A DNA stretch of 32,000 bases, taken from the NCBI RefSeq assembly GCF_000146505.1, contig NC_017448.1, positions 2,100,001-2,132,000 of the forward strand, written 5' to 3'. Within the stretch, counting starts at the first letter, position 1. Each line of letters starts with the position of its first letter. The notes under the pieces are model-generated. The model was not told where the DNA came from. It made no database searches and worked only from the letters and a program-made list of their open reading frames with translations. Source of the stretch: Fibrobacter succinogenes subsp. succinogenes S85 (GTDB lineage: Bacteria > Fibrobacterota > Fibrobacteria > Fibrobacterales > Fibrobacteraceae). This document shows, piece by piece, positions 344 through 16,529 of this stretch. A program made the translations under genes and the position numbers.

Positions 344-493
344 ATGAGTCGTAGCGATCGCAGAAGAGCAAAGCAAAACGTCAAAAATTTCGTTCCAAAA
401 AAGTCAAATGCGCTGGATAAACGAGTCATCGTGCTCCTCGCAATCATCGTCGTTGTATTTTTCGTAGGAACAATGATCATCCAGAGAGGCTAA
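344..493 (+). CDS. small (49 aa) basic N-terminus plus single-TM protein immediately upstream of dnaN
   Basis: My own translation is MSRSDRRRAKQNVKNFVPKKSNALDKRVIVLLAIIVVVFFVGTMIIQRG with stop TAA at 491-493. GGAG lies at 332-335, 8 nt before the ATG. It falls below the ORF-track size cut-off. No homology claim. Confidence 0.3.
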   Translation: MSRSDRRRAKQNVKNFVPKKSNALDKRVIVLLAIIVVVFFVGTMIIQRG

Positions 494-496
494 TTC

Positions 497-1618: not shown

Positions 1619-1640
1619 TCGTAGTTCGGAAAGATTTAAG

Positions 1641-1665
1641 GGCTCTCGCGAGAGAGCCTTTTTTA
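1641..1665 (+). terminator. rho-independent terminator after dnaN
   Basis: GGCTCTC (1641-1647), loop GCGA, GAGAGCC (1652-1658), then TTTTTT (1659-1664). Confidence 0.65.
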
Positions 1666-1710
1666 GTGGGAATGTATAGGGAACCGCCGCAGACTTTGAA
1701 TAAAGTAATT

Positions 1711-2433
1711 ATGTCAAGTCAAATTCGTAAACGAGTCAATAAAAAAATCACGAAAGCCATTCACGACTTCAACTTGATTGAAGACGGCGACCGCGTGCTC
1801 ATCGCAACAAGCGGTGGCAAGGATTCTAGCGTGCTGTTGATGGAGCTCGCCGCGCGACTCGGCAAATTCGGACCAAAATGCGAACTTGCCGCCATCCACA
1901 TTCAAAGCGATTTTGCAGACAAGGCTCCTCGCGAATTTTTGCAGCGCATGGCTGAAGAATATCCGCAAGTGCCATTTTACTTTAAGGACGTCGCCGTAGA
2001 AGCTCGCCTCAAAGAAGGCCGCAAGTTGAACTGTTACTGGTGTAGCACGCAGCGCCGCACAGAGCTTATCAAGTTCGCGAGCGAAAACAACTTCAATAAA
2101 ATTGCGCTCGGGCATCACATGGATGACATCGTCGAGACGCTTCTGATGAACATGCTATACAAGGGCGAGTTCAGCGGGATGCCGCCAATGGTGCCGTACG
2201 AAAAGTATCCGTGTAGCATTATCCGCCCGCTCTGCTACTGCGAAGAAAGCGAAATCATCGCCTATGCCGAAGATGCGGACATTCGCAAGTTCACCTGTAC
2301 CTGCGAATTCTCGAAAGCAAGCCACCGCAAGACCATCCGCGAAGAAATCAAGAGCTTGACGAAAGGAAGCTCCACACTCAAGGCAAACTTGTTCGAAAGC
2401 ATGCGGAATATCAGGATGGACTATTTATTGTAA
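1711..2433 (+). CDS. ttcA: PP-loop ATPase, TtcA-like tRNA 2-thiocytidine synthetase family
   Basis: SGGKDS PP-loop motif (VLIATSGGKDSSVLL) plus Cys pairs CYWC and CTC. I place the start at ATG 1711 (MSSQIRKR...). The track ORF start at 1495 overlaps dnaN and looks spurious. Confidence 0.75.
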   Translation: MSSQIRKRVNKKITKAIHDFNLIEDGDRVLIATSGGKDSSVLLMELAARLGKFGPKCELAAIHIQSDFADKAPREFLQRMAEEYPQVPFYFKDVAVEARLKEGRKLNCYWCSTQRRTELIKFASENNFNKIALGHHMDDIVETLLMNMLYKGEFSGMPPMVPYEKYPCSIIRPLCYCEESEIIAYAEDADIRKFTCTCEFSKASHRKTIREEIKSLTKGSSTLKANLFESMRNIRMDYLL

Positions 2434-2466
2434 GACCGCTTTATTGCAAGGGGAACTGCGCGGATT

Positions 2467-3144
2467 TTATCGGACACAGCGCACGGAACGATAGTCCTCT
2501 TTCGCGAACGAATTTAAACTCGCCGCATCACTGCTGAATGACAAGAACAAATAGAACGCATTTGATTCTGGATTTTCAGGATCTTCAGTCGCACTCCAAA
2601 AATACGCATAACCGCCGATACCATTGAACTTGCCACCAGCAACAGCACCGTCATCCGCTTTTGAGACAGCACCGCGATAACCCGCCGGAAGCGCGTTGAA
2701 TCCGAAGTCATCCGTGCCGTTACCTTTTTTGAACCAACCATCGCGAGATTTCAACTTAGCACCAACCTTATTCGAGACAGCGCCGGAATCGCCATCGTGG
2801 GACTGCGCGAGGACTTGCGCAAAATCTTCATTCGTCGGGAGACGCCAGCCTTCAGGGCAAACCGTTTTTGCCTCCGCCCACGAATAAAGCCTCCCCAACC
2901 GCTTACAGTTGCGAGAATCGCCCTCCGGGCAAAAACTCCCCACTGTCTCAAAATTCAAATTCTCCGCCATCCATGTCAAATCGCCAATCTTAACAACATC
3001 ATAAGATTGCCCATCACGCGAATCCGTGAACGACTCCGAACATGACATGAGGAGGAAGGTTAAGGCGGCAAGAGCGAAAGAAGAATGGATAGTGAGATGC
3101 ATGGAGAGAATATAAATTTTCCATATTCGCAAATTTCTTTTCAT
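2467..3144 (-). CDS. lipoprotein with Fibrobacter succinogenes major paralogous domain (TIGR02145-like)
   Basis: Lipobox-like LLMSC after a hydrophobic stretch. Motifs DGQSYDVVKIGDLTWMAENLNF, RLYSWAEAKTVCPEGWRLPTNEDF, GFNALPAGYRG and YFWSATE. The start could instead be ATG 3100-3102 (MHLTIH...). Confidence 0.8.
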   Translation of the reverse strand: MKRNLRIWKIYILSMHLTIHSSFALAALTFLLMSCSESFTDSRDGQSYDVVKIGDLTWMAENLNFETVGSFCPEGDSRNCKRLGRLYSWAEAKTVCPEGWRLPTNEDFAQVLAQSHDGDSGAVSNKVGAKLKSRDGWFKKGNGTDDFGFNALPAGYRGAVSKADDGAVAGGKFNGIGGYAYFWSATEDPENPESNAFYLFLSFSSDAASLNSFAKEDYRSVRCVR

Positions 3145-3164
3145 CTCCTAAAAAAATGCTATTA

Positions 3165-4238
3165 TCACTTTTTCCTCTGTTTCTTTTTCATTTCCGCCAT
3201 AGTGCGGTCAACAACCTCTCGCAACTTATATGTAGCCACACCCAACGGTTTGTTGATGTCTTTAAGCGACCATTCCACAACAGTCTTATCTGTCGATTTG
3301 CAAATAATCAAACCCACAGAAGGATTATCGCCTTCACCCCGAAGCAACTCATCTGCGGCAGTCACATAAAAATTAAGTTTACCAGCAAATTCCGGAGTGT
3401 ACTTCACGACCTTGAGATCTATAATGACATACCTGTGCTGTGGAATAAAATAAAAAATCAAGTCCGGGAAAAATGCTTGCCCGCCAGGCATCCGAAATTC
3501 CATCTGACGCCCAACATAGGAAAATCCTTTGCCCAGCTCCAATAAAAACTGAGTAACGTTGGCAATAAGAGCATCTTCTAAATCACCTTCATCATACTTT
3601 TCTTTCATTTTCAGAAATTCAAAATGATAAGGATCCTTCAGAATTTCCTTTGCAAGTTTCTCCTGAGAGGATGTCAAAGTTTTTTTGAAATTGGTAACAG
3701 CGGTTCCCTTCGTTTGAAAAAGATTAGCATCTATATATGCATTTAAAGTGGGGCGCGACCAACCATTATCCACTACACCCTTGACATAAAACAGGGCCTC
3801 GTCTATTGATCGGCATCGAGAAACAATGTCTATATGTTGTCCCCACGGAATTTTACCAAAAGCCTTGGGCATTTCTAATTGGCCAACGGCCCGTTGGCCT
3901 TTTTTATTTCGCTCAAAATAGAACAAATACCACTGTTTCATATACTTCACATTCGTGAAAGAAAAACCAGTCTCATTAGGGAAAGAATGACGCATATCAA
4001 GCGCAAATTGTTTTACAACTCCAGCGCCCCAACGTTCTTCGGCTCGCAACGCAACTAAATCACGACCAATTCCCCAATATAACTCTAACATTTCGGTATT
4101 CACGCGAATGGAAGCTTTCACCTGGCTCTGGCGAAAACGGTTTTTAACATCGGACAACCATTCAACATAACTGCTATCAGCCAACATACCATCGCGAAAT
4201 ACAAACATCGGTTTACTCATAGACTCTTTCTTTTTCAT
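3165..4238 (-). CDS. DUF1016 / YhcG-like PD-(D/E)xK nuclease family protein
   Basis: N-terminal ...YVEWLSDVKNRFRQSQVKASIRVNTEMLELYWGIGRDL... and C-terminal nuclease core FFPDLIFYFIPQHRYVIIDLKVVKYTPEFAGKLNFYV (D...D-L-K). I place the start at ATG 4236-4238, which is preceded by GGGGAGG. The track ORF extends to 4361. Confidence 0.8.
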   Translation of the reverse strand: MKKKESMSKPMFVFRDGMLADSSYVEWLSDVKNRFRQSQVKASIRVNTEMLELYWGIGRDLVALRAEERWGAGVVKQFALDMRHSFPNETGFSFTNVKYMKQWYLFYFERNKKGQRAVGQLEMPKAFGKIPWGQHIDIVSRCRSIDEALFYVKGVVDNGWSRPTLNAYIDANLFQTKGTAVTNFKKTLTSSQEKLAKEILKDPYHFEFLKMKEKYDEGDLEDALIANVTQFLLELGKGFSYVGRQMEFRMPGGQAFFPDLIFYFIPQHRYVIIDLKVVKYTPEFAGKLNFYVTAADELLRGEGDNPSVGLIICKSTDKTVVEWSLKDINKPLGVATYKLREVVDRTMAEMKKKQRKK

Positions 4239-4239
4239 T

Positions 4240-4350
4240 TTAGACCTCCCCAATTTCTTCTTTCGAGAACCAGTTGCCCTTAATATCCAGCCATTCATAT
4301 TCATGGGGAAGAGAGAGCAAATTCCTGATAAGATCTTCGGATTTTGCCAT
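4240..4350 (-). pseudogene. 36-codon remnant resembling the N-terminus of an AlbA_2/Schlafen-type putative DNA-binding protein
   Basis: MAKSEDLIRNLLSLPHEYEWLDIKGNWFSKEEIGEV-stop, with a GGAGG RBS at 4355-4359. The pattern (E.EwLefK.n...eeIGe) matches how AlbA_2-domain proteins begin. The stop at 4240-4242 abuts the DUF1016 start. Confidence 0.35.
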
Positions 4351-4420
4351 AAAGCCTCCATATGGCCGCAAATAGCGACCGGTTAATGTTAGAGGCGTTC
4401 TTGCGAAATCAAAAAGTTGA

Positions 4421-4462
4421 TAAAAGCAAAAACGCACCTCGCCTTTGTACAGCGAGATGCGT
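4421..4462 (-). terminator. rho-independent terminator (minus strand) closing the hsd-linked gene string
   Basis: Arms at 4432-4442 and 4452-4462 (11 bp). The only imperfect position is a G-U wobble in minus-strand RNA but a C-A mismatch in plus-strand RNA. On the minus strand the stem is followed by TTTTGCTTTTA (4421-4431). Confidence 0.6.
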
Positions 4463-4764
4463 CGGCTTTTAATGTACCTAATATCGAAAAAACTGGCAAG
4501 GGGAGCAGAAAAATTTTACAAAGAGCGTTCACTTACTCATTTCATTCATCTTCATGATGCATTGAAGGCAAGCCCTTGATATACGCTGATTACAATCCTA
4601 TATTTAGACTATCTCGTCTGCAAATGTAGAAGGAGTTCATGAAGACGTTCCATCCTGTGGAGCGTCTTCTGCATTTTGGAGATGAAAGCACACAGTGACA
4701 ATTTCTTCGCACCTTGCGGAATAATTACACAACAGATTTTTCATCTAAATCTTTGCTTTCGGTT

Positions 4765-4941
4765 TCAGTAGTTCAGAAATTCTGAACAGCAAATCATGTT
4801 GAGGTATAGAAAAAATTCAAGATTCAAAAGTCTTTGACTTTCTTGCTGAATCTGTCGGAAATCCCGACAAGTTGAACATCCATCCAGTTTACCCTTTTCA
4901 TAAATGTCCTTTATATGCTCAACAACATAGGTTTTAGACAT
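4765..4941 (-). pseudogene. RhuM-family gene fragment (middle part only, degenerate)
   Basis: MSKTYVVEHIKDIYEKGKLDGCSTCRDFRQIQQE... parallels the RhuM segment ITKHLKNIYAAQELDEKTTCSVLE... seen at 16021-16515. The following LEFFLYLNMICCSEF looks like a decayed YNLDMIISVGYRV. Its ATG overlaps the stop of the upstream gene (TAATG). Confidence 0.35.
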
Positions 4942-5318
4942 TAGTACCAATAGTCGTTCTCATCGTAATCCTCAATCCAAGTTTTGACCTGATCCGGCGA
5001 GGCCTTGATGGATTTTTTCAGTTCCCGATTCAATTCACCTATCTTAAGTTCGAGATATTCCTTAAAATCTTCCTCGCCATAATCTCCAGCTTCCAAATAA
5101 TCTATGCATTTGGCGTAGATATATGCAGTACGCAGAACCTTGTACGCCTTTTTAAAAATGGCCAAAGTTTCTTTTGAATAAGGTCTAAAGCACTTCCATT
5201 TTTGGGTCTGAACGAATTCAATCCATTCCTTACTTTTATGTTTCAAGTAAGTCCGCCGTACATAATCGGCCATCCCCTCAATACGCGATTCATGATAGTT
5301 AAATGTTCCACCAGACAT
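4941..5318 (-). CDS. hypothetical protein (125 aa), acidic C-terminus
   Basis: ATG 5316-5318 is preceded by AAGGAG (5325-5330). The protein reads MSGGTFNYHESRIEGMADYV...CIDYLEAGDYGEEDFKEYL...DYDENDYWY. No family recognised. AT-rich. Confidence 0.55.
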   Translation of the reverse strand: MSGGTFNYHESRIEGMADYVRRTYLKHKSKEWIEFVQTQKWKCFRPYSKETLAIFKKAYKVLRTAYIYAKCIDYLEAGDYGEEDFKEYLELKIGELNRELKKSIKASPDQVKTWIEDYDENDYWY

Positions 5319-5564
5319 TGCATTCTCCTTGATTGTATTTTTCAAAGTTTTATATTCACCTTTAAAATACGCTCATCGCCATGCAAGCGCAAGAGGTCGC
5401 GTTGTTGCCACGAAATGGGTATTGTAGCCTTGATGTTGTATTTTGTCGGGTTTTATGTTGCCAAACCCATTTTTCATCACCTGTTCTCTGGGCAATCTCT
5501 GGGCAATTTCAGCAAAAAATGTTTGAAGTATCTTTTTTGGGGCAGGCGGTAACAGTGACTAACT

Positions 5565-7493
5565 TCATTTTCCAAAATATTTCAAGCAGAATTCCTCATT
5601 CACTTTAACAACAATCATTATAAAAACTTTTAGGGTTTCAATATATGCCTGTTGCAGCTCTTCTTCTGATCCAAAGAAAGATCCATGCAGAAAGGTATTG
5701 CGCAAATCTAAGCTGTTTGAGAATTCTTTCTTGTTCAACACAAAATTATAGTAATCGCGTTCTTGGCGAGAAAATATAGTTGATTCAACTTCAACTTCTT
5801 CTTTTTCTACTAGCTCTTTTAATATTTCCTTTTGCTTACCCTTTTGATGAGCAAAACAAACAACCTCATTCTCATACAGGTTATATAAAAGAGAACATCT
5901 ATCGATATCTATCCCTAGACTATTATCGGCTTCTAAAAGTAAAGCCCCTCTTTCTATCAACCATTTTATCCAAACTCTTGCCTGCTCTGCAAAATCAGTT
6001 ATGAAAAGATGTTCTTTGGCAATTATCTCTACTAGAGAGTTATACCCGCTCCAAGCAAAGTTCATTCCAAACAACAGGTTAAAGGAAAAAAGGAACCGCA
6101 TTTCTTTTTTAAGACTTTCCCCTTTAACATAAGCATATTTCTGTTTTAAAAAACTCTTCAATTCTCCTATACGGACAGGATTAGAAGAAATAGCCACAAG
6201 TTCCTTATCAACGCAACCGTCTTCCATATAATATTTCAGTTGCTTAAGGATTCCGTCCATCTCAATATAAAGTAGTTTTATCCGTTCCGACAACGATACT
6301 GATTTTGACGGTTTCTTGAATTCAAAATCAGAAATACCAAAATTCTCTTTTAGATAATCACCAAAGAAATAATCAAACAAATCTTCAATGCAAATCCCGT
6401 AATTTTCAAGCTCTTCCTTATATGTAGATAAAATCTTATAGTAAATCATCCTATTTTTTGTAAATTGCGAGCGTATAGGATAATGCTTTATTCCCTCACT
6501 TTCTGCAAGCAATTCATCTATTATACTTTTCTTTTTCAATACAAATTGACAACGCAGTTCCGAATCAAAGAAACCAAACAGGAAAATAAAGTTATTAAGT
6601 AGTGTCGGGAAATCGTGATGTTCCCTTACCCATTTCTTGCTGTATGTGCAATAGACATGATGGTCTGTTTCATTATACGATTCATTCTTTTCTTCATCTA
6701 TTTCCTTGAACGAGGCAATGCATCCATAAGAAAAAGACGATCTTTCTGAAAAATGCTTTTCCCAATATTTCTCCTTGGCCTTTTTAGCCTTTAATCGCAG
6801 CCTATCATCAATATTAAGCCCCGGTATTATAGGAGCATTTTCTATCAATTCCAAATAGTTCGGATGCGGTTCAAACGCCCCATCAACATAATAATTAAGG
6901 ACGCTTATTTTCTTTTCTTCGGTCAAAACCTTGGGAAATACGATGCTTTCTTTTTCTGCAAAATCTTTTACCAAGTAGTATTTGATGATTATTTCAGCAG
7001 CATCCTTATTGTCCATCATATAATCAGTTATTACCTGATTGTATTTTTTCACCCATCCTTTACATTCTAAGATACAAAACAAGGGAATCAACTTTTTATT
7101 TAGCAGATTTTGAACGCCGGAATTGGGAATGTTTTTCAACAAGTCAAAACGTTCTAATAATTTCAGCAGGTCTAACGAATAATATGTCCATATGCTCTGG
7201 AAAATATTTTCAATATCGCTTAAATCCAGTTGCTGAAAATAAGAAGAAACAAAACGGGATATCGCATCCGTTTCCTTTCTATACTCATTAAATTTTTCAG
7301 GCGTAATATTTGTTGGGCAATCAATGGACTTTACAATCTGAACGATGTTTGATAATTCTATAACTTGATTTAGGTCATAATTATTTGATGAATCAAAGGA
7401 ATCCAAAATGGGTATTGCCCTTTGGAACATGTGGTACTGATGTAGCACCGAGCGTTTATTGAATGTTATATGCTCAAGGAAATCTTTGGTCAT
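5565..7493 (-). CDS. large hypothetical protein (642 aa) with C-terminal HEPN-like R-N-x-x-x-H motif
   Basis: Uninterrupted 1929-nt ORF in very AT-rich DNA. The C-terminus is ...FSRQERDYYNFVLNKKEFSNSLDLRNTFLHGSFFGSEEELQQAYIETLKVFIMIVVKVNEEF. R598 is encoded at 5700-5702 and H603 at 5685-5687. I saw no Walker A motif, and the first ~560 aa are unassigned. Confidence 0.75.
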   Translation of the reverse strand: MTKDFLEHITFNKRSVLHQYHMFQRAIPILDSFDSSNNYDLNQVIELSNIVQIVKSIDCPTNITPEKFNEYRKETDAISRFVSSYFQQLDLSDIENIFQSIWTYYSLDLLKLLERFDLLKNIPNSGVQNLLNKKLIPLFCILECKGWVKKYNQVITDYMMDNKDAAEIIIKYYLVKDFAEKESIVFPKVLTEEKKISVLNYYVDGAFEPHPNYLELIENAPIIPGLNIDDRLRLKAKKAKEKYWEKHFSERSSFSYGCIASFKEIDEEKNESYNETDHHVYCTYSKKWVREHHDFPTLLNNFIFLFGFFDSELRCQFVLKKKSIIDELLAESEGIKHYPIRSQFTKNRMIYYKILSTYKEELENYGICIEDLFDYFFGDYLKENFGISDFEFKKPSKSVSLSERIKLLYIEMDGILKQLKYYMEDGCVDKELVAISSNPVRIGELKSFLKQKYAYVKGESLKKEMRFLFSFNLLFGMNFAWSGYNSLVEIIAKEHLFITDFAEQARVWIKWLIERGALLLEADNSLGIDIDRCSLLYNLYENEVVCFAHQKGKQKEILKELVEKEEVEVESTIFSRQERDYYNFVLNKKEFSNSLDLRNTFLHGSFFGSEEELQQAYIETLKVFIMIVVKVNEEFCLKYFGK

Positions 7494-7504
7494 TTATATA
7501 TGAG

Positions 7505-8071
7505 TCAATACAGGTTTTTATTTCGAACTTTTTTGTACTTGATTCCTTTTTCAGTTCTTTCTGCACTAAATTCAGAAATATCATCTGAACTAATGAAATC
7601 TATATAGTTCAACCAATCTTTCATTGTCACATGATATAAGCATTTATCACAATTTTCATCCGAAGAAACGCAAAATCCTTCAATACTCTTGTCGTCATTG
7701 TAAGTCAATTCAAAAATTACAGAATGTATCAGCCTATTACAAACATCTGTACCCTGTTTTGTTTGCCTTCTAGACGATTCCCAATTATGACTATCTTCGG
7801 AAATCCAATGATGCATATTATCAAAATACTTTTTAGATTCAAATATTTCCACTTTCAGTGCATAACAATCTGCTTCATCACTCAATTTAGTCTTACAATC
7901 CACCAATTTTCGAATTACAAACGCGGAATAGAAAATACTTTTCTCTAGAATTGAATAAGCATTATCCGAATCATCATCGTCATTTTGAAAATATTTTGAT
8001 GAACCATATTCAATTATTTTATCACGATAAGATAACAAATCTTCTTTCCATGGACCTGATTCAAAAATCAT
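7505..8071 (-). CDS. hypothetical protein (188 aa)
   Basis: ATG 8069-8071 is preceded by GGGAG (8079-8083). The track ORF starts at GTG 8119. The stop lies 11 nt before the 642-aa gene. It contains FYSAFVIRKLVDC and VCNRLIHSVIF (N-x-x-x-H without the Arg). No family recognised. Confidence 0.6.
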   Translation of the reverse strand: MIFESGPWKEDLLSYRDKIIEYGSSKYFQNDDDDSDNAYSILEKSIFYSAFVIRKLVDCKTKLSDEADCYALKVEIFESKKYFDNMHHWISEDSHNWESSRRQTKQGTDVCNRLIHSVIFELTYNDDKSIEGFCVSSDENCDKCLYHVTMKDWLNYIDFISSDDISEFSAERTEKGIKYKKVRNKNLY

Positions 8072-8181
8072 AATTAAACTCCCAAATGCTTTACTTTCGT
8101 CCGCTTGTTTCTTGCCCACAATTTCGGCGACTCTCGTTCAAAAAAATTATTTCCAAAGAGTCCTAGGGATAATTAAGCACT

Positions 8182-8220
8182 AATTTGGACACTTTGCTTA
8201 GCAAGGTGTCCAAATTTTTT
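8182..8220. terminator. 11-bp perfect stem-loop in the 173-nt gap between the two gene pairs
   Basis: AATTTGGACAC (8182-8192), a 13-nt loop, then GTGTCCAAATT (8206-8216). The T-run (8215-8220) follows the stem on the plus strand. On the minus strand an A-run precedes it, so its function as a minus-strand terminator is uncertain. Confidence 0.35.
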
Positions 8221-8244
8221 AGCTAGAATGTTTCCTCTCTACAC

Positions 8245-8766
8245 TCAATATGACCTAATATAACTTATAAAAGGATCCATCAAAGCGTAAAGACTAGAAA
8301 AATCAAGGATTCTCCCATTTCGCAGAACCCAGTAACGACCATGAGCCAGCCAGTGCCTATATTTAAAGACTCGTTTAATTTCGCTCATATACCCATTTCT
8401 GTAGGCACCTACATTTTGCCATGTAGACAATATATGTTCTTCTAGACTTGCTTTACGAGGATCTGGAAGACCCAAAGATCTCATAGCTCGCGATACTGGA
8501 TCTTTTAATTTTTTCCCCAATCGATTAAGATAATCAACTCTGCAAGACGCTTCTACGCAAGATAGCAAATCTAATGAAAAAAGCTTCTCCAATTCATCCC
8601 TACTTTCGTCAAATTCCTGTTCAAATTCCTGCCTAGTATAGGAAATAAATCTTGGATTAGTCGTCTGATAATAATCGTTAAGTGCATCCATTGAAACTTG
8701 GTATTTTTCTCTCACATACGCGAGAGACACGTTCTGATTAGAAAAACTAACGCTAATCCTGGCCAT
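8245..8766 (-). CDS. hypothetical protein (173 aa) with HEPN-like Rx4H motif
   Basis: ...EIKRVFKYRHWLAHGRYWVLRNG..., with R137 at 8356-8358 and H142 at 8341-8343. The start ATG 8764-8766 overlaps the upstream gene by 14 nt. Confidence 0.65.
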   Translation of the reverse strand: MARISVSFSNQNVSLAYVREKYQVSMDALNDYYQTTNPRFISYTRQEFEQEFDESRDELEKLFSLDLLSCVEASCRVDYLNRLGKKLKDPVSRAMRSLGLPDPRKASLEEHILSTWQNVGAYRNGYMSEIKRVFKYRHWLAHGRYWVLRNGRILDFSSLYALMDPFISYIRSY

Positions 8767-9268
8767 TTACAAGTTCCATAATAACATTTTGGATGCTATC
8801 TTCAGTAACGTCAATAAAATTTCTGTTATCGGGTGCAACAAAACGCCAAACCCACTGATCTTCAGGAGCAGTACCATTGTTTAAATCAGAAGGAATTTTT
8901 CCTTGTATAGAGAAATTTTTTCTCATTAAAATGATTTTCGCAAAACCCTTTGGACCTTCCATTCTTACGCGACCTTTAGAAGCGATAAGCATCGTTCCTT
9001 CAGGTTTTAACTGTATATGGATTGTATTTAGTTTTAAAGTGAGCCGAGGGACTTCGTATGTGCCAAGAGATTCCTCATTTATTTGAATGTTGTCTCTTTC
9101 AACTTGAATTTGTCCATTTTTCACATAGGGAAGCAACGATCCTTCAAAAATACTGTACAATTGATTAAGATAACTTCTATACTCCTCAATCTCTTTCTGA
9201 GGATCAAATTTTACCTCTGGATCCCCTTTTTGCGCATTGAGTTCATTTAAAAATTTTGCAAAATTCAT
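8753..9268 (-). CDS. hypothetical protein (171 aa), first gene after hsdS
   Basis: ATG 9266-9268 is preceded by AAGGAG (9274-9279). The track ORF starts further upstream at 9313. The protein reads MNFAKFLNELNAQKGDPEVKFDPQKEIEEYRSYLNQLY...LKPEGTMLIASKGRVRMEGPKGF... No family recognised. Confidence 0.6.
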   Translation of the reverse strand: MNFAKFLNELNAQKGDPEVKFDPQKEIEEYRSYLNQLYSIFEGSLLPYVKNGQIQVERDNIQINEESLGTYEVPRLTLKLNTIHIQLKPEGTMLIASKGRVRMEGPKGFAKIILMRKNFSIQGKIPSDLNNGTAPEDQWVWRFVAPDNRNFIDVTEDSIQNVIMELVNGQD

Positions 9269-9349
9269 TTTGACTCCTTTTTTATAATTTAGTTTTTTCT
9301 GATTTTCGTTCATTCATACACATTTTAACAACCATTTTTTCTAAAAATA

Positions 9350-10576
9350 TCAAACACTAATTTCGCCATTCATGATTTTGGGGAGTAGCCGATTGCGGGA
9401 TTCCGCTGCTAATTGAATTTGATCTTCCAACTTTTCAATTTTGGAAATCATAGAAGCAAATACATTATCGTACATTTCAACAATACTTTTTTCAGGGCAA
9501 AGAACTTCTATATCCGCCATATTTTCGGGTCTTAAATGAAGAACATTCGCTCCGTTTGCGAGAGGAGAAATTTTATAACTTAATCCCCCAAATCGGCATT
9601 GAGCGTAAAAAAATGTTTTGGAAATTGTTTTGGGCAATATTTTTAACAGGTCCATTGTGAAAATAGCACATTCTTTTAAATTAGGTATTAACGCGACATG
9701 TCCTACCAAACGACGTTCTTTCGTCATATCAGTACATCCCATGACCAAGTCGCCGGACTCTAAAATTCCGTTTTCTTTGTACTTACCTGTAAATCGTTTT
9801 TCCGCATTGCGCTTATAACCACCAAAAGCGTTGATGTTTTTTAGATTAACCAACAAAACGCCTTCGTTATCACTTAATTCATTTGATGTGTAAGAAGTTC
9901 CACGAACGTAATCCACAACATCACCAAGTTTCTCTTTCCACCATCCCTGAGGCAGTCCATCAACGATGGGGGTGGTTTCGTAGCCGGGGAATTTAAGGTC
10001 GATGAACCATTGTTTGTAGAGGCGTTGGGCGGCTTCTTCGAGGAGTTTGATTTGCTTCTGGTTGTTTTCAATCAGATCATCGTATGCGGAAAGGATGTCG
10101 GCTATTCGTTTTTGAGTTTCTTTATTAGGAATATTTATTTCCATATTCCTTAACGCAGTCAAGCTCACGGTTCTCTGAGCAGCACCAACAGCAACAGCAT
10201 CCGCCATCATATAAAAATCATTACTCAGCATCTTGTAATACAAGTATCGCGAATAAATTTTTGATTCGTCAGGACGCAAAATTGCAATATGCCGCTGAAA
10301 TACAAAGGGACTATCGTCTTTTATAAATACAGGCTTTCCAAAAGATCCAACAACAGAATAAAGAATATCATTTACTTTTGGTTTTCTTTTTTCATCAAGA
10401 GAATCATAATACTCTTGCGGAACAAACATCGTATTAGTAAAATCAAATTGATTCGCAGAAGTTATATTCGATATCGTTACAAACGGAATACCACAATCAG
10501 CTTTGGGTGGTGGCAAATGATCTCCATCCGCGATTGAAACGCATACATCTCCTAATTTCACTTTTTCCCAAGCCAT
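9350..10576 (-). CDS. hsdS: type I restriction-modification specificity subunit
   Basis: Two-TRD layout with the conserved central helix ADILSAYDDLIENNQKQIKLLEEAAQRLYKQWFIDLKFPGYE and the C-terminal helix IEKLEDQIQLAAESRNRLLPKIMNGE. Confidence 0.9.
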   Translation of the reverse strand: MAWEKVKLGDVCVSIADGDHLPPPKADCGIPFVTISNITSANQFDFTNTMFVPQEYYDSLDEKRKPKVNDILYSVVGSFGKPVFIKDDSPFVFQRHIAILRPDESKIYSRYLYYKMLSNDFYMMADAVAVGAAQRTVSLTALRNMEINIPNKETQKRIADILSAYDDLIENNQKQIKLLEEAAQRLYKQWFIDLKFPGYETTPIVDGLPQGWWKEKLGDVVDYVRGTSYTSNELSDNEGVLLVNLKNINAFGGYKRNAEKRFTGKYKENGILESGDLVMGCTDMTKERRLVGHVALIPNLKECAIFTMDLLKILPKTISKTFFYAQCRFGGLSYKISPLANGANVLHLRPENMADIEVLCPEKSIVEMYDNVFASMISKIEKLEDQIQLAAESRNRLLPKIMNGEISV

Positions 10577-10718: not shown

Positions 10719-12593
10719 TCATATCCCCAACTCCTTCATGTTCTTGGAGATGGTTTTCATGAGCGTGTTACTTTCGTCCTGGAGTTTCAGGAGTTCTTCG
10801 TGGATTTCATGCATGCGTTCGGCAAAGTCCACGCCGTCATCTTCAACGGGGGCAACGCCTACATAGGCTCCGGGAGTAAGGCTAAAGTTCTTTTCAGCAA
10901 TTTCGGCACGGGTTGCGATTTTGCAAAGACCAAGAATGTCCTTGTATTTTCCGTCACCGAACTTTTCATAGAGCCAATCGGCTTCTTTCGCCACATTCAA
11001 GATTTCATCAAATTCTGCAAGACGCGTGTCCCATTCTTCCTGAGTCTTTTTCTTGCTCTTCTTATCGGCAGCATCTACAGATGCTTTTGCTTCGGCTCGA
11101 AGCGTTTCGCGATATTCCTTGAGCAATTCTACTTGCTTTGCAATCTTGGATGTCTTGCGGAGAATCTTTTCAAGGTTGGCATCATCGGTTTCATCGGCGT
11201 AAGAAAGAAGCGTTGTGCGGTATTCTGCAAGCAAGCTTTGATACTTGTCAAGTTCTCCACGATAAAGCCATACAATAGCGTTCAAGTTTTTCAGTTGCCA
11301 TTCGCTCCATTCATTCAAGGTGCGATCCACAACAGTGTAGTAATTGCGGGCATCAATAAAAAGAACTTTGTCCTTAATATTCTTCTTTTTGCACTTGTCA
11401 AAGAACCACAGGGTGCAAGGCAAACTCTTGGTGTAAAAGAAGTTGTTGCCAACGCTTATCATGCAGTCCACATGACCTGTCGCCACGAGTTTTTCGCGGA
11501 TATCTTTGTCCTTGCTCTGACTATCCGTCGCAGAGGCTGCCATCACAAAGCCCGCACGACCTTTTTCGTTCAGGTAGCTATAGAAATAAGAAATCCAAAG
11601 GTAGTTGCCATTGCCGATTTCTTTATCCTTGTTGACGGCAGGCAAACCAAACGGCAGTCGCCCCGCACTTTGACAACTTTCTGCCTTAACCTTATCCACA
11701 TTGAACGGTGGATTCGCCATCACATAATCGCACTGCCCCGTCAAATTATGTGCATCGTGATAGAAGGAGTTCGCTTCGTCGCCAGACTTGACAACTCCGG
11801 TAAGGCCATGCACAGCCATGTTCATCAAGCAAAGTTGAGCATTGTATTCCACCTTTTCTTGGCCGTAAAAAGTCATAGTCTCGTTGCTAGCCATCCCGGC
11901 AGCATTCACAAAATCACCCGTCTGCACGAACATGCCACCACTTCCGCAAGCAGGATCCAAAAGCACACCATACGAAGGTTCTAGCACATTCACAATCATC
12001 TTCACCAATGATTTCGGGGTAAAGAAAACTCCGTCATCACTAGCAATATTCTTCGCAAACTTACTGAGGAAGTATTCGTAAATACGACCCATTACATCGC
12101 CGCCCACATCATCCAACGCATTGTTGTTGAAAGTGCGTAAAAGTTCAGCGAGAAGATTATCCTTAAAGTCGGTGTAGGTCTTAGGCAATACGCCCTTCAA
12201 TTTTTCGCTTTGAGCCTCGACTAGTTCCATGGCGTTATTCACCACTTCGCCAAGGCTGTTGAGCGGCTGACCATGCACATTCTTGAGTTTGGCAGAAGCA
12301 ATGTTCGCAGGCAAATTCACCAAATAATCAAACTGGGCTTCTTTGGGGAGGAACAAGGCGCTCTTCGAAACAAAGTCACTCGCCTCGATGGGGAGAACGC
12401 GACCGCCTCGACTCGGGCGATTTTTCAACAGTTCGGCTTCAACCTTTTTGAAGCGCCCATAGGCATAACGCAAAAACAACAGACCCAAAACAGGCATACA
12501 ATATTGATTCGAAGTCAACTTGGAATCGGCACGGAGTAAATCCGCAGATTCCCACAAATCCGCCTCAAGTTTCTTTAAGCTCTTATTATCCAT
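10719..12593 (-). CDS. hsdM: type I restriction-modification N6-adenine DNA methyltransferase subunit
   Basis: HsdM_N-like start MDNKSLKKLEADLWESADLLR, SAM motif LLDPACGSGGMF, catalytic NPPF (VMANPPFNV), and a long coiled C-terminal extension ending ...FSLTPGAYVG... Confidence 0.92.
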   Translation of the reverse strand: MDNKSLKKLEADLWESADLLRADSKLTSNQYCMPVLGLLFLRYAYGRFKKVEAELLKNRPSRGGRVLPIEASDFVSKSALFLPKEAQFDYLVNLPANIASAKLKNVHGQPLNSLGEVVNNAMELVEAQSEKLKGVLPKTYTDFKDNLLAELLRTFNNNALDDVGGDVMGRIYEYFLSKFAKNIASDDGVFFTPKSLVKMIVNVLEPSYGVLLDPACGSGGMFVQTGDFVNAAGMASNETMTFYGQEKVEYNAQLCLMNMAVHGLTGVVKSGDEANSFYHDAHNLTGQCDYVMANPPFNVDKVKAESCQSAGRLPFGLPAVNKDKEIGNGNYLWISYFYSYLNEKGRAGFVMAASATDSQSKDKDIREKLVATGHVDCMISVGNNFFYTKSLPCTLWFFDKCKKKNIKDKVLFIDARNYYTVVDRTLNEWSEWQLKNLNAIVWLYRGELDKYQSLLAEYRTTLLSYADETDDANLEKILRKTSKIAKQVELLKEYRETLRAEAKASVDAADKKSKKKTQEEWDTRLAEFDEILNVAKEADWLYEKFGDGKYKDILGLCKIATRAEIAEKNFSLTPGAYVGVAPVEDDGVDFAERMHEIHEELLKLQDESNTLMKTISKNMKELGI

Positions 12594-12624: not shown

Positions 12625-15600
12625 TTACGCAACTTTGTAGTGGGTATAAACATACTCGTAAATACGCTGGCGGTATTCCGAAATAGAGAGCTCATCAAAG
12701 CTTTCAGGGAGTTCGCTCCATAGCGTATCGCGAATCAAGTTATCGACAGCAGCCTTTGTTTCTTGTTTGTCCGTCCAATGGTCAAATTCAGCAATTTTTG
12801 CTTTAACCTTTTGGAGCAAATCTACAGCCACTTCCTTAATCTTTTTAATGTCCTGCTTACTCAAATCATCTTTGAAGAGCATGTCGTAAAGCGAAAGTTC
12901 TTCGTCGTTCTTGAAGCCCTCACGTACATAGCGCTGTTCTTCCTCATTCATGCTTGCCGCAAGGTTCATCAAGTCCATGAATGTTTTTTCAATCGTTGCA
13001 CGATCCTGTTCGCTGTTGTAAGCCTCAATAATTTCGCGATAGCGGTCGTAATAATTGATGCGGAATGGATTCTGTGCAAGCATCACAGCCAAGCGATCCT
13101 TTATCAATTCTTCCAAATCGCGGAATAACAAATTTTGTCGTTTTGCCTTCGCAAATTCACGACGCAACAAATCAAAATCGATCTTGCTAATGTCGAATTG
13201 TTTAGACTTTTTCTTGTCATTCTTAACGACATCAACATACTCGTTCATAATCTGGTTCAGCTGAACCATCAAATCCACATTTGTCACATGGCGACGTTTA
13301 GTTTTCAAGTCGCGGGCAACCGCATCAATCGCTTTAAACTTCGCACGAATTTCACTTGTCACATCGTCGCGATTCGTGTATTTCATCAATCGCACAAGTT
13401 CTGCGGCATACGTGCTAAAAGTTTTCTTGTTTTCGAGCGTAGAGCAAACCGCATTTTCAACATCCTTGATTGCTGCAAGCTTATCAAAATTCTTAGACTC
13501 GATTATGCTCTTTAAATTCGCGTTGCAACCATCCAAGAAACTTTCTGCTTTAGCGACCACTTCCACAATGCGTTTTAAAAGCTCTTCTTTATCAATGGTA
13601 GGATCGTTACCGGAACCAGAAACCTTATTCGTGTAATCCGCAAGAGCCTTACGCAAAGCCTTCACAATACCTGCATAATCCACAATCAAGCCGTTGCTTT
13701 TGCCCTCATTCACACGATTTGCGCGGGCAATTGTTTGCATGAGAGTATGAGCCTTTAACAACTTGTCCAAATAAAGGCAACTAAGGCTCTTTACATCAAA
13801 ACCGGTAAGCCACATCGCACAGACAAAGACTATACGGAACTTGCTATTAGAATCCTTGAATTCCTTGTCAAGTTCGCGTTTTTCCATTTTCTTCCGATGC
13901 GGAACAATATCCAAGCCCCATTTTGCAAATGTCTGCTGTTCGTTCTGTTCGTCACTCACGACAACAGCCATCTCGGTTTCACGCATCCACTGGATTTTGC
14001 GATTCAGTTCTTGAGCCTCTTGCTGTGTAGCCTGCTTGCAAATAGATTCGAGGTTCTTGATTTCTTCTGCCCAATATTCCTGGGCGAAATTGAACATTCG
14101 AACACACGTGACCTTGTTTAGGCAAACAAACATTGCCTTTCCGCTAGTCCAAAGGTCGGAATAATGTTTGACAAAATCCTTTGCGACAGCACGCAAGCGG
14201 GGTTCAGCCGTAAGCAGGTGATATTCCTTAGCAAAATCCCTTTCCAGCTTTTCTTGGGCATCTGGGTCAAGGTCTGCTTTTTCGATGGCATCCAAAATCT
14301 TGTCCGAGATTTCAGGATTCTTTAGTTCCTTGATTTTATCGGCACGGTTTTCGTAATAGAGAGGGACCGTCGCACCATCTTCTACAGCACGCTTAAAATC
14401 GTAAATCGAAATGTAGCCGCCGAATGTGCGTTCGGTAATATTGTCGTCTTTTAAAAGCGGAGTACCCGTAAAGCCCAAACGAGAGGCATCGGGCAACAAG
14501 TTGCACATGTTTTCCGCAAAAATTCCGTTCTGGCTACGGTGTGCTTCATCCGACAAAATCAAAATATCATGATCAGGATGAATCGGCTCCAAATCCTTCT
14601 TGTTGAACTTTTGGATCAGCGTAAAGATGTAACTCGGATTAGCCTTTAGTTTTTTAATAAGGTCATTTCCGCTTGTAGCGATAAACTTGGATGCTTTTAC
14701 ACCGCCAAGCATTTTGCAATTTTCAAAAGTTTCACTGATTTGCTTGTTCAGTTCATCGCGATCGGTTAACACGACAATTGTCGGGGAACCGTCCGTACGG
14801 CGGCGAATTTTCTGCGAAAGGAAAAGCATCGAATAGCTTTTACCGCTCCCCTGCGTATGCCAAAACACACCAAGTTTACCTTTACGGAGTTTGCGGTTCT
14901 TATAAGCTTCAAAAGCCTCGTTCACGCCAAGATACTGATGATTCCTGGCAAGGATTTTTACCGTATGGCCATCGCTGTGGTCATAAAGGATAAAGTTTTC
15001 AAGCAAATCAATAAAGGTTTCTTTTCGGCAAATACCCTTGAGCATCGTAGCAAGAGCCACTGAACCAGCGTCGTCTTCTTTAAGGCGTTTCCATTCATGG
15101 AAAAATTCAAACTTGCTTCCGAGCGTTCCCACTTTTGCCTCAAAACCATTTGAGAGCATCAAGAAAGCATTGTAGTAGAACAGCTGCGGAATAGTCGACA
15201 GGTAATCGGTATAATTATCGTCGTAAGCATTTTGCACCGCCACATCGTTACGCTTGAGTTCGACAAACAAAAGCGGAATACCATTTACAAAACCAACAAT
15301 ATCCGTACGACGATGGTACAACTCGCCATGAATCTTCATCTCTTTCACGGCAAGGAAATCATTATTTGACGGATTGTTGAAATCAACTATCAACGCACGC
15401 TTTTCATCGACTTGGCCGTTCGGCTTTTTTATCGTCACCGGAATGCCATCGCGGATGAATCCGTACTTTTCTTCGTTGATTTGCAGAAGCGAAGAAGTGC
15501 TAAGCGTCGCTGTAAATTTTTGAACAGCCTCTTCAATCTGATTTTGGTTTATCCAAGGGTTCAATTTTTGAAGAGCTGCCTTAAAATAGCGAAGCAAAAG

Positions 15601-15747
15601 GACTTCGCGATACGACTTTCGCCCAAATGTGCCATTATCCCCAAGAACCTCAATATTATAGGCGAAAACAACACGCCAACCCAGCTCTTGCAGCAGGTTT
15701 CCGGCGCTCTCTTGAACAAGAATGTTTTCGCTATATTCGTAGGACAT
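12625..15747 (-). CDS. hsdR: type I restriction endonuclease/helicase subunit
   Basis: PD-(D/E)xK core (TDIVGFVNGIPLLFVELKRN), Walker A HTQGSGKS and DEAH box LILSDEAHRSQ. I place the start at ATG 15745-15747 (MSYEYSENILVQE...). The track ORF starts at TTG 15804. Confidence 0.92.
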   Translation of the reverse strand: MSYEYSENILVQESAGNLLQELGWRVVFAYNIEVLGDNGTFGRKSYREVLLLRYFKAALQKLNPWINQNQIEEAVQKFTATLSTSSLLQINEEKYGFIRDGIPVTIKKPNGQVDEKRALIVDFNNPSNNDFLAVKEMKIHGELYHRRTDIVGFVNGIPLLFVELKRNDVAVQNAYDDNYTDYLSTIPQLFYYNAFLMLSNGFEAKVGTLGSKFEFFHEWKRLKEDDAGSVALATMLKGICRKETFIDLLENFILYDHSDGHTVKILARNHQYLGVNEAFEAYKNRKLRKGKLGVFWHTQGSGKSYSMLFLSQKIRRRTDGSPTIVVLTDRDELNKQISETFENCKMLGGVKASKFIATSGNDLIKKLKANPSYIFTLIQKFNKKDLEPIHPDHDILILSDEAHRSQNGIFAENMCNLLPDASRLGFTGTPLLKDDNITERTFGGYISIYDFKRAVEDGATVPLYYENRADKIKELKNPEISDKILDAIEKADLDPDAQEKLERDFAKEYHLLTAEPRLRAVAKDFVKHYSDLWTSGKAMFVCLNKVTCVRMFNFAQEYWAEEIKNLESICKQATQQEAQELNRKIQWMRETEMAVVVSDEQNEQQTFAKWGLDIVPHRKKMEKRELDKEFKDSNSKFRIVFVCAMWLTGFDVKSLSCLYLDKLLKAHTLMQTIARANRVNEGKSNGLIVDYAGIVKALRKALADYTNKVSGSGNDPTIDKEELLKRIVEVVAKAESFLDGCNANLKSIIESKNFDKLAAIKDVENAVCSTLENKKTFSTYAAELVRLMKYTNRDDVTSEIRAKFKAIDAVARDLKTKRRHVTNVDLMVQLNQIMNEYVDVVKNDKKKSKQFDISKIDFDLLRREFAKAKRQNLLFRDLEELIKDRLAVMLAQNPFRINYYDRYREIIEAYNSEQDRATIEKTFMDLMNLAASMNEEEQRYVREGFKNDEELSLYDMLFKDDLSKQDIKKIKEVAVDLLQKVKAKIAEFDHWTDKQETKAAVDNLIRDTLWSELPESFDELSISEYRQRIYEYVYTHYKVA

Positions 15748-15767
15748 AATAATGGGCTTTTTTTGTA

Positions 15768-15797
15768 AATATAGCCTATTTTTATGCCAAATTACAA
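15768..15797 (-). promoter_or_regulatory. possible sigma70-type promoter for hsdR
   Basis: Read on the minus strand: TTGTAA (15792-15797), an 18-nt spacer, then TATATT (15768-15773), about 20 nt upstream of the hsdR ATG. This is a pattern match only. Confidence 0.3.
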
Positions 15798-15987
15798 CAA
15801 ACAAAAAGATTTAAAAGGTCAAAAGTCGAAACATTAAACCAAAGGGAATGCACAACAGTGCGTGGGTTGTTCGTACTACAAAAAACATTAATTTGGTAAT
15901 GCTTTCAGCGGACTTTAGCGAAAAATTCCCCAAATGTCACATTCTGTCACCGCAATAATTTAAATTGAATTTTGATTGTTTTAGTCT

Positions 15988-16515: not shown

Positions 16516-16529
16516 AAAACTCAAGATTA

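Follow-up and report, generated by a model that had tools for sequence, protein, structure and literature searches.

Probably separate cassettes, two with predicted HEPN-type RNases, behind a type I restriction-modification operon of Fibrobacter succinogenes S85

Do the five AT-rich genes that follow a type I restriction-modification (R-M) operon in Fibrobacter succinogenes S85 form one defence system, or are they several systems stacked at one place? A first-pass annotation of the window, a stretch of 32,000 nucleotides, had proposed the former, a new five-gene HEPN-based system guarded by or cooperating with the R-M enzyme. The layout it described stands: the eight genes hsdR-hsdM-hsdS-A-B-C-D-E are all encoded on the minus strand, with the coordinates it gave, the public record of S85, CP001792.1, calls matching products (186/171, 173, 188, 642, and 125 aa for A to E), and the intergenic distances derived from the ORF coordinates are 81 nt (hsdS-A), -14 nt (A-B), 173 nt (B-C), 11 nt (C-D), and 246 nt (D-E). 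According to Pfam and PADLOC, hsdR, hsdM, and hsdS are all present, making the operon complete. The genes and the terminator that closes the run are as follows.

12625..15804, minus strand: hsdR, type I restriction subunit, 1059-aa ORF (Pfam HSDR_N, SWI2_SNF2/ResIII, T1R_D3-like; PADLOC REase_I, E 2.3e-155)
10719..12593, minus strand: hsdM, type I methyltransferase, 624 aa (Pfam HsdM_N, N6_Mtase; PADLOC MTase_I, E 1.5e-279)
9350..10576, minus strand: hsdS, specificity subunit, 408 aa, two target-recognition halves (Pfam Methylase_S in two stretches; PADLOC Specificity_I, E 8.2e-87)
8753..9268, minus strand: A, 171 aa (186 aa with the start at 9313), obligate partner upstream of B, proposed antitoxin or sensor
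8245..8766, minus strand: B, 173 aa, HEPN-like, all-helical, predicted RNase toxin/effector with a 14-nt overlap with A
7505..8071, minus strand: C, 188 aa, orphan family (513 representative clusters) usually between hsdS and hsdR
5565..7493, minus strand: D, 642 aa, large helical N-terminal region and C-terminal HEPN-like domain, PADLOC phage-defence candidate PDC-S56
4941..5318, minus strand: E, 125 aa, small protein of the block with the 58-aa ORF and YhcG, not of D; no Pfam, NCBIfam, PHROG, or PADLOC match
4765..4941, minus strand: 58-aa ORF starting on the stop codon of E (TAATG), annotated as a gene in public contigs, 98% identical in locus L001
4431..4463, minus strand: intrinsic terminator closing the minus-strand gene run before YhcG (13-bp stem with 7 GC pairs, U-run; dG -28.7, z -5.85)
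3165..4238, minus strand: YhcG/DUF1016 PD-(D/E)xK nuclease, 357-aa call (ORF to 4361), PADLOC candidate PDC-S02

The terminator had been placed beyond E at 4421-4462 and is real. The AT-richness claimed for the region was borne out, with 30-39% GC for the five genes and 34.7% over 4941-9313, compared with 43.7% window-wide and 50.6% in bases 1-3100; the 63% GC quoted for dnaN was not, the ORF as a whole having 54.8%. The region is an AT-rich variable defence island adjoining dnaN, with 3165-9313 as its cargo end, and in Fibrobacter succinogenes it is bounded by dnaN and its flank on one side and by the genes upstream of hsdR on the other. As described earlier, a Walker A motif, GxxxxGK[ST], is found in none of the five proteins A-E. 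The five had also been called unassignable, which is right for Pfam, NCBIfam, and PHROGs, where no family is assigned above cut-off, but not for PADLOC, which assigns D to PDC-S56.

The genes fall into at least four cassettes, A+B, C, D, and E with the 58-aa ORF and YhcG, whose distributions are separate. By tblastn, A, B, and C were found in 0/80 species-level D loci, and A, B, D, and E in 0/80 C loci, the latter being partly redundant (13 lineages at 70% identity). The co-occurrence of the 642-aa D with the 173-aa B, to which the first-pass annotation had looked, was therefore not seen in any of the 80 D loci. At the DNA level, blocks of blastn identity end at cassette borders, including C/D and D/E: A-B-C (7496/7515-9402) is common to L081-83, D alone (5483-7503) to L001-L003, E to dnaN (1-5351) to L001, and C alone to L094-96. 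In L001, E is 98.5% identical and D only 87%, and the two are separated by an IS and a VbhA-like ORF; L003 retains D with both flanks but has no hsdRMS, A-B-C, E, or YhcG. Where D would follow C, sister contigs carry instead a 410-aa protein with KAP_NTPase and PIN7, or FRG and PIN7. We consider it rather probable that at least four separately mobile cassettes follow the complete type I R-M operon, and not one new five-gene system, which is contradicted by the separate distributions, the absence of co-occurrence in both sets of 80 loci, and the identity breaks. The stack is best read as independent RNase-type abortive-infection or toxin modules together with one R-M-associated orphan. Two of the cassettes probably encode predicted HEPN-type RNase toxins; one of these, D, already figures in PADLOC as a defence candidate, and C is uncatalogued.

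The idea of HEPN proteins at this locus came from two motifs, both located where they had been reported.

8341..8358, minus strand: Rx4H motif of B, RHWLAH, invariant in 56 sequences
5685..5702, minus strand: R-N-x3-H motif of D, RNTFLH, conserved without exception in 29 sequences, the most divergent at 23% identity

Three Rx4H motifs occur in A-E, one of them in E, against 1.09 expected (P ~0.09), so the motif alone is not beyond chance, and what counts as evidence is that it is invariant within each family. In the B family, Y136-R137-x-W-L-A-H142-G-R-x-W is invariant among 56 homologues, R137 and H142 included, and in the D family (29 homologues) the invariant positions are E578, Y581, R598, N599, H603, K630, and N632 together with a YPTLLNNF motif. 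The HEPN idea thus holds in the conservation of both motifs and, weakly, in the fold of B, but not in the bare occurrence of Rx4H. Comparison of the two families by hhalign gave no relation.

B has 249 homologues, two of which UniRef names RiboL-PSP-HEPN. Its AF2 model consists of helices throughout (pLDDT 90.1), and HEPN proteins make up 10/11 of its top Foldseek matches in the PDB, each weak singly, the top HEPN toxins being 7ae8, 5yep, 1wwp, 1jog, and 2hsb (E 0.5-5, TM 0.3-0.46). Modelling followed by Foldseek, suggested earlier as a check of the fold, therefore spoke weakly for HEPN in B, whereas the model of whole D found no relative in PDB or BFVD. In Pfam, B matches only HEPN_MAE_28990 (E 0.084), and no Pfam HEPN model rises above threshold for the family. 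Judging from the conserved residues and the model, B is probably a HEPN RNase toxin. In 26/26 loci examined, from several phyla, the B homologue is immediately preceded by an A-like ORF, with an overlap of 8 nt in other phyla. Across phyla the A family shows 27-35% pairwise identity (E 1e-19 to 1e-30) and a conserved block, P-x-G-T...G-R-[VI]-D...G, and the start codon chosen for A earlier, M16 of the longer ORF, is supported since proteins of the family begin there. A itself has no match in Pfam, NCBIfam, PHROG, or PADLOC and no relative among PDB sequences, and having neither Pfam NTP_transf nor the motif G-S-x9-13-D-x-D it is not a nucleotidyltransferase. The pair resembles the HEPN-MNT type II/VII toxin-antitoxin (TA) systems (SO_3166/SO_3165, PDB 5yep; 7ae8) in that B is small and all-helical, carries Rx4H, and has an obligatory overlapping partner gene, and these toxins are its best, albeit weak (E >= 0.5), PDB fold matches; it differs in that the partner lies upstream and is, by motif and Pfam, of another kind. 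A and B may constitute a translationally coupled toxin-antitoxin-like or abortive-infection module, in which B would dimerise, probably forming the Rx4H active site, and A, encoded first and ever present, would restrain B or sense a trigger, so that B once freed would cleave RNA and arrest growth.

D matches the PDC-S56 models of PADLOC end to end (PDLC05039, E 4.5e-160, residues 3-638; PDLC05038, E 6e-24, residues 555-639), and is a member of that class without any difference. PDC-S56, defined as a single gene embedded in type I R-M loci, is a guilt-by-embedding candidate only (Payne et al., bioRxiv 10.1101/2024.01.29.577857), and it is not mentioned by name in the literature searched. The family comprises 96 genome loci and is enriched inside type I R-M loci, as is the C family, which upholds part of the R-M link asserted earlier; however, hsd genes lie within five genes of D in 18/80 loci, with hsdS-D-hsdR embedding in 9/80, leaving 62/80 without a nearby hsd gene. 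An integrase is found within five genes in 14/80. On sequence grounds, D is a stand-alone gene of a candidate defence class. Its AF2 model (pLDDT 89.7) has a long last helix, a feature which, with the C-terminal R-N-x3-H and a conserved upstream acidic residue, recalls the C6orf70/DUF4209 family, classed as HEPN and noted in 2013 as one that "occurs in R-M related operons" (Anantharaman et al., PMC3710099). The Pfam match to DUF4209 covers residues 548-621 (E 0.021) but at 15.3 bits falls below the 22.3-bit gathering cut-off, no other D homologue matches the model, and the 540-residue N-terminal region with YPTLLNNF is absent from DUF4209. The gene composition of the locus is thus not wholly undescribed, as had been held, given PDC-S56, PDC-S02 (YhcG), and the DUF4209-type HEPN proteins already seen in R-M operons.

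The parallel drawn earlier with PrrC and RloC applies in so far as these too are predicted HEPN-type RNases in or adjoining type I R-M operons, and the hsdS-x-hsdR slot is sometimes taken by the D family. In architecture it fails for D, which lacks an ABC-type ATPase domain, Walker A, and a PADLOC PrrC match; moreover, most D homologues are not R-M-linked, and here the genes lie 3′ of hsdS, not between hsd genes. D is closer in plan to AbiJ/SadR, being a single protein with a non-HEPN region and a C-terminal HEPN domain of R-polar-x3-5-H type, and also to HEC-08, in which the HEPN domain is N-terminal. SadR ceases to defend when R, N, or H of the motif is mutated, and HEC-08 when the motif H is. 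D has no sequence relation to these proteins, matches neither Abi_C nor DUF3644, and its N-terminal region is unlike theirs and much larger. By this likeness, D would be a self-contained single-protein effector independent of the R-M enzyme, whose helical N-terminal sensor or regulatory region may govern a C-terminal R-N-x3-H HEPN RNase domain, acting in the manner of AbiJ/SadR or HEC-08.

The C family numbers 513 representative clusters at E<=1e-3, and since its proteins begin at M17, the start codon assigned earlier is supported. Its invariant residues are R54 and H116, 62 residues apart, and among 58 members none has a Pfam or PADLOC family. hsdS lies within two genes upstream of C in 39/56 informative loci (12/20 lineages at 90% identity) and hsdR within two genes after it in 23/56, with median gaps of 14 and 15 nt, respectively. 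We favour for C the role of an R-M accessory or embedded defence gene, which may act with or watch the Hsd complex.

Could the five genes nevertheless work as one multi-gene HEPN system, guarded by or cooperating with the R-M enzyme? They are co-directional with short gaps and one overlap, no strong terminator comes before the one beyond E and the 58-aa ORF, both the C and the D family are enriched at R-M loci, and in close Fibrobacter relatives A-B-C move together with hsdS. Distribution has already largely refuted this reading, which we hold to be very improbable: besides the empty sets of 80 loci, A-B is found by itself in Alpha-, Beta-, and Gammaproteobacteria as well as on plasmids and 6 viral contigs, the identity breaks at C/D and D/E together with the other cargo in place of D argue against it, and a strong hairpin lies between B and C.

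8182..8216, no strand assigned: perfect hairpin of 16-17 bp in the B-C spacer, which may mark the end of a transcript or a site of processing between cassettes

This hairpin is identical in L081-L083; as minus-strand RNA it has z -3.4 and no U-run follows, and on the plus strand z is -6.1 and T6 follows. Read-through from the hsd promoter may transcribe all cassettes, which would give transcription in common and mechanisms apart, and some cooperation in S85 may be compatible with the separate distributions. That A-E are decaying or non-functional ORFs acquired horizontally, with Rx4H coincidental, would agree with their low GC, the P of ~0.09, and the lack of matches in curated families, and yet is scarcely credible, as the five ORFs are intact and all called in the public record, the families of B, C, and D are large, core residues are invariant down to ~23-35% identity, and AF2 gives confident models of B and D.

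More serious, if doubtful, is the possibility that A-B, and perhaps also D, act selfishly, as addiction modules that stabilise plasmids or islands, and not as anti-phage systems. A-B is the main and essentially sole cargo of ColRNAI plasmids of 3.7-4.7 kb (4.6 kb in Klebsiella), and its antitoxin-first, overlapping gene order is typical of type II TA loci. Several chromosomal contexts lie outside defence islands, in housekeeping neighbourhoods, where an addiction module fits equally well as defence. Against this, A stands outside known antitoxin families, and the S85 locus and several other A-B contexts are rich in defence genes (DpnII-MboI, nSTAND, Peptidase_C14, AAA_15). Nor need addiction and defence be alternatives: many TA modules abort infection. 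A PrrC-like guard, in which C, or less likely D, is kept inactive by the Hsd complex and set off once a phage anti-restriction factor has disabled that complex, seems unlikely to us. The closeness of C to hsdS and hsdR, with gaps of ~15 nt, its degree of embedding, which resembles that for PrrC in Payne et al., and the nine D loci in the PrrC position all favour it; however, no signature of a nuclease, ATPase, or HEPN protein can be recognised in C, which has only its two invariant residues, ~30-40% of its lineages do not adjoin hsdS, most D loci have no hsd gene near, and both genes here stand at the operon end after hsdS.

Under the preferred reading of separate cassettes, the last of them includes YhcG, which is recognised by Pfam (YhcG_C, E 1.6e-50; DUF1016_N, E 2e-31) and by PADLOC (PDC-S02, E 7.5e-122). 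E and the 58-aa ORF would be passengers of this block, and a gut phage contig encodes a weak relative of E (E 7e-5).

Downstream of the type I restriction-modification (R-M) genes, which carry all three subunits R, M and S, five further ORFs follow hsdS on the minus strand, here called A (171 aa), B (173 aa), C (188 aa), D (642 aa) and E (125 aa). The R-M genes and a small ORF past E are placed as follows.

12625-15804, minus strand: hsdR, intact by Pfam and PADLOC
10719-12593, minus strand: hsdM, intact by Pfam and PADLOC
9350-10576, minus strand: hsdS, intact by Pfam and PADLOC
4765-4941, minus strand: 58-aa ORF, starting on the stop codon of E (TAATG), a gene call in public contigs, 98% kept in the related Fibrobacter contig L001

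The public record CP001792.1 calls the same five ORFs (186/171, 173, 188, 642 and 125 aa), and homologues back the shorter starts of A (M16) and C (M17) chosen in the first-pass annotation, with which its spacings of 81, -14, 173, 11 and 246 nt were reproduced. Its coordinates for the Rx4H motifs (the HEPN catalytic signature; RHWLAH in B and RNTFLH in D) were also confirmed, as were the absence of a Walker A motif (GxxxxGK[ST]) from all five proteins, the low GC content (34.7% in the five-gene stretch vs 43.7% in the whole window; dnaN has 54.8% over the whole gene) and a minus-strand terminator after the five genes, a strong one being located at 4431-4463. The description of the five proteins as unassignable holds in Pfam, NCBIfam and PHROGs, where A-E gave nothing above threshold, but not in PADLOC, where D matched the candidate family PDC-S56, the other four being left without a family. 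Similarly, the Rx4H motifs that were read as a sign of HEPN are present, but alone they do not go beyond chance, with three seen against 1.09 expected and one of them in E. E. coli genomes searched with the DNA gave no match, and scanning the window for Rfam families and tRNAs returned nothing.

It had been proposed that the five genes and hsdRMS form one defence system of undescribed composition. This is unsupported, as the distribution of D loci, the distribution of C loci and the borders of blastn blocks, three independent tests, all agree against it. Among 80 D loci from different species, tblastn found A, B and C in none, and E, the small ORF and the YhcG gene only in the nearest Fibrobacter MAG. 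Likewise, A, B, D and E are found in none of 80 metagenome loci carrying C. Blocks of DNA identity with close Fibrobacter contigs (blastn) stop at gene borders, and comprise an A-B-C block (7496/7515-9402) common to L081-83 at 88-92%, a D-only block (5483-7503) common to L001, L003 and L002 at 90, 86 and 76%, an E-to-dnaN block (1-5351) common to L001 at 93%, and a C-only block common to L094-96. The apparent five-gene operon is best read as a stack of cassettes recombining at gene borders, and it illustrates why distributions should be used to separate the genes of a defence-island cluster before the cluster is named a system. The ideas of HEPN activity and R-M linkage were partly right. Comparison by hhalign found no relation among the B, C and D families, and on this ground two candidates were dropped, namely that C is a cryptic HEPN protein and that B and D are paralogues. 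Profile searches with the four families A-D against PDB sequences gave nothing below E 0.01, and Pfam runs on all sequences in the alignments of families B, C and D gave no coherent match.

The sister contigs differ in what they carry at the same site. L082-86 have hsdS-A-B-C in that order and then, where D would be, genes for a 410-aa protein, a KAP NTPase and a PIN7 protein, and L081 has an FRG protein and PIN7 after hsdS-A-B-C. In L001, a MORC-like ATPase and unassigned ORFs precede D, and an IS and a VbhA-like ORF lie between D and E. L003 keeps both island flanks (window 15665-17000 and 1-3122) together with D, while a KAP NTPase replaces hsdRMS-A-B-C, and E and YhcG are absent. This differing cargo, with both flanks kept in L003, indicates that the site adjoining dnaN is a cargo-swapping hotspot. 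A repeat search found no flanking direct or inverted repeats marking an integrated element. Defence-type cargo of the sister islands lies at L081:4796-6277, L082:4075-7534, L003:6175-8346 and L001:3452-5350; it includes an AAA_14/DUF4143 ATPase between hsdM and hsdS, the 410-aa unassigned protein with KAP NTPase and PIN7, the FRG protein, and a MORC-like HATPase_c_3 protein.

An A-like ORF lies directly upstream of the B homologue in 26/26 loci, ending at or overlapping the B start (usually by 8 nt, and by 14 nt in the window), so that the two are a strictly co-inherited adjacent pair of overlapping, apparently translationally coupled genes, resembling a type II toxin-antitoxin (TA) pair. The loci come from Fibrobacter, Agrobacterium, Burkholderia multivorans, several metagenome lineages and 6 IMG/VR contigs, in neighbourhoods ranging from defence-rich (DpnII-MboI, PIN, nSTAND, caspase-like, AAA_15) to housekeeping. 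Homologues of B (n=249, ~178 aa) include two with the UniRef name RiboL-PSP-HEPN, and the Rx4H residues R137 and H142 fall within a Y-R-x-W-L-A-H-G-R-x-W block that is invariant in 56 sequences, alongside which E72, R82, S92 and W116 are also conserved. No Pfam HEPN model passes threshold on these 56 members, and PADLOC gives no match for B. The AF2 model of B is all-helical (pLDDT 90.1), and in Foldseek HEPN proteins make up 10 of its 11 top PDB matches (7ae8, 7ae6, 7ae2, 5yep, 7bxo, 8xeh, 1wwp, 1jog and 2hsb among them). The structural check suggested with the HEPN claim thus places HEPN toxins at the top, but each score is weak (E 0.5-5, TM 0.24-0.46); the rank enrichment supports a HEPN-like fold for B and is not proof of it.

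For A, a word-index search yielded 3 close relatives, and the family was therefore rebuilt from the neighbours of B homologues; its N-terminus is helical, a P-x-G-T...G-R-[VI]-D...G block is conserved, and it has no relative in Pfam, NCBIfam, PADLOC or PDB sequences. The known pairing of this kind is HEPN-MNT, in which the partner is a minimal nucleotidyltransferase. That identity was rejected for A, whose family alignment is without the G-S...D-x-D signature and which has no Pfam or NCBIfam match; with a partner that is not an MNT, A-B does not qualify as HEPN-MNT. We infer that A-B would be an autonomous TA-like or abortive-infection module, in which B may be the RNase, with A guarding it or serving as a sensor. 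On the evidence of Pfam, NCBIfam, PHROGs, PADLOC v2 and PDB, A-B is an uncatalogued, predicted HEPN toxin pair. ColRNAI plasmids of Klebsiella, 3.7-4.7 kb in size, carry it as their main cargo, and it occurs on IncFIB plasmids too; the Klebsiella homologues are annotated as hypothetical proteins only (CP044379.1 3676-4627, locus L193; NZ_CP072469.1 92961-94071, locus L194), and a paper search with their protein accessions found nothing. The spacer that parts B from C holds a perfect hairpin of 16-17 bp (8182-8216), identical in three related contigs. As plus-strand RNA it is terminator-like (dG -30.7, z -6.1, followed by T6), and no plus-strand gene runs into it; a role as minus-strand terminator was ruled out, since the coding strand has no U-run after the hairpin.

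C belongs to a family of at least 513 clusters at 50% identity (513 representative clusters by phmmer), in which R54 and H116 are invariant. Pfam and PADLOC assign no family to 58 members, PADLOC giving noise only. Its commonest context is hsdM-hsdS-(Pfam-less 278-aa protein)-C-hsdR, and hsdS lies within two genes upstream of C in 39 of 56 informative loci; after de-replication this holds for 12/20 lineages at 90% identity and 6/10 at 70%. Median gaps are 14 nt from hsdS to C and 15 nt from C to hsdR, and what follows C varies between hsdR, a 338-aa unassigned protein, FRG, or, in the window, D. Such context, with the short gaps and lineage counts, marks C as by all appearances the most R-M-bound of the five genes. 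It is a putative R-M-embedded gene that Pfam, NCBIfam, PHROGs, PADLOC v2 and PDB do not catalogue. Two more Pfam-less families recur beside C in type I R-M operons at ~17 loci each, namely a ~278-aa protein between hsdS and C (L144:6140-6973) and a ~338-aa protein after C (L111:7589-8605).

D is matched at full length by the PADLOC model PDLC05039 of PDC-S56 (E 4.5e-160, residues 3-638 vs model 3-641 of 649), and its last 85 residues also match a second PDC-S56 model, so that, judged by sequence, D is a member of this already catalogued candidate family. Its nearest database entry, an F. succinogenes protein, is 100% identical. Such phage-defence candidates were proposed from their embedding in BREX, DISARM or type I R-M loci (bioRxiv 10.1101/2024.01.29.577857); a paper search for PDC-S56 and a search of the PADLOC preprint supplement found nothing. 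Across the 80 loci D is a single-gene cassette with no conserved partner gene; hsd genes lie within five genes of it in 18, an integrase in 14, and nine embed it as hsdS-D-hsdR, three of those with YhcG. In 29 sequences, down to 23% identity, R598, N599 and H603 are invariant in the C-terminus and conform to Rx4-6H; E578, Y581, K630 and N632 are also invariant, and the N-terminal part carries a YPTLLNNF motif. A weak Pfam match to DUF4209 points to the C6orf70 HEPN family, already recorded in R-M operons (Anantharaman et al., PMC3710099). The AF2 model has a pLDDT of 89.7, and Foldseek with the whole model against PDB and BFVD found no match below E 0.04 and no fold relative. D may be a single-protein effector whose N-terminal region controls the predicted HEPN RNase domain, as in AbiJ/SadR and HEC-08. 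Defence is abolished by mutation of the motif R, N or H in SadR and of the motif H in HEC-08. The results for D supply the candidate PDC-S56 with a confident structural model and with invariant residues as targets. Many Clostridia homologues of D (L006, L011-L013, L027, L055, L070 and others) adjoin a TRAM/tRNA-U5-methyltransferase-like (RlmCD-like) gene, and an integrase is often close by; these neighbours suggest a preferred integration site for a D-carrying element there.

The first-pass annotation had likened the cluster to PrrC and RloC, which have an ABC-type ATPase with Walker A, whereas D and B have neither an ATPase Pfam match nor a Walker A motif. Against the PADLOC models, PrrC and RloC included, D matches PDC-S56 and a noise-level Cas5 only, and B matches nothing. 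PrrC and RloC also lie between hsd genes, while the window genes follow hsdS at the operon end; embedding of the D family is seen in 9/80 loci. Lacking the ATPase, the Walker A motif and any match to the models, D and B do not fit the analogy in architecture, and for D it probably fails on dependence too, most D homologues having no R-M link. If C acts via the Hsd complex, it would represent a second R-M-coupled function, unrelated to PrrC. A bolder reading, which we hold to be unlikely, is that C represents a new, uncatalogued family whose function is bound to type I R-M, with C as an accessory or guard subunit reading the Hsd state and sometimes handing over to a swappable downstream effector (D in the window; elsewhere the 410-aa protein with KAP-NTPase and PIN7, FRG, or the 338-aa protein 'u338'), and that in parallel A-B is a new HEPN toxin module whose partner has a new antitoxin or sensor fold, not MNT. 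Under the preferred reading as stacked cassettes, two leads stand out, the strictly paired, predicted HEPN module A-B, found across phyla and on small plasmids, and the small orphan C, beside type I R-M genes in most loci, both absent from Pfam and PADLOC. Islands of this sort are common, and the pairing of A with B and the R-M fidelity of C are concrete leads within them.

E has no family in Pfam, NCBIfam, PHROGs or PADLOC. Its sole outside relative is on the gut phage contig MT835576.1, a weak match (35% identity, E 7e-5), and a viral scan found nothing. E and the 58-aa ORF starting on its stop codon may be a coupled pair. Past the 58-aa ORF come the terminator and then the YhcG/DUF1016 gene (3165-4238), which is PDC-S02 (PADLOC E 7.5e-122) and has both PD-(D/E)xK domains, DUF1016_N (Pfam E 2e-31) and YhcG_C (E 1.6e-50). 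In L001, the protein identity of E, the 58-aa ORF and YhcG is 98%, vs 87% for D. The Rx4H of E (4941-5318, minus strand), RTYLKH at residues 22-27, had not been listed in the first pass, and E has few homologues.

Elsewhere in the window, a 63-nt direct repeat, 95% identical, occupies 15988-16050 and 16530-16592, each copy with a GGAGG-ATG start; a small plus-strand ORF, lying just upstream of hsdR, begins at the first and has the look of a tandem paralogue. Finally, GC falls to 0.30-0.35 at 23501-24500, amid ~49% GC, with a strong skew of C over G (-0.34 to -0.41); this AT-rich patch may be a second foreign insert.
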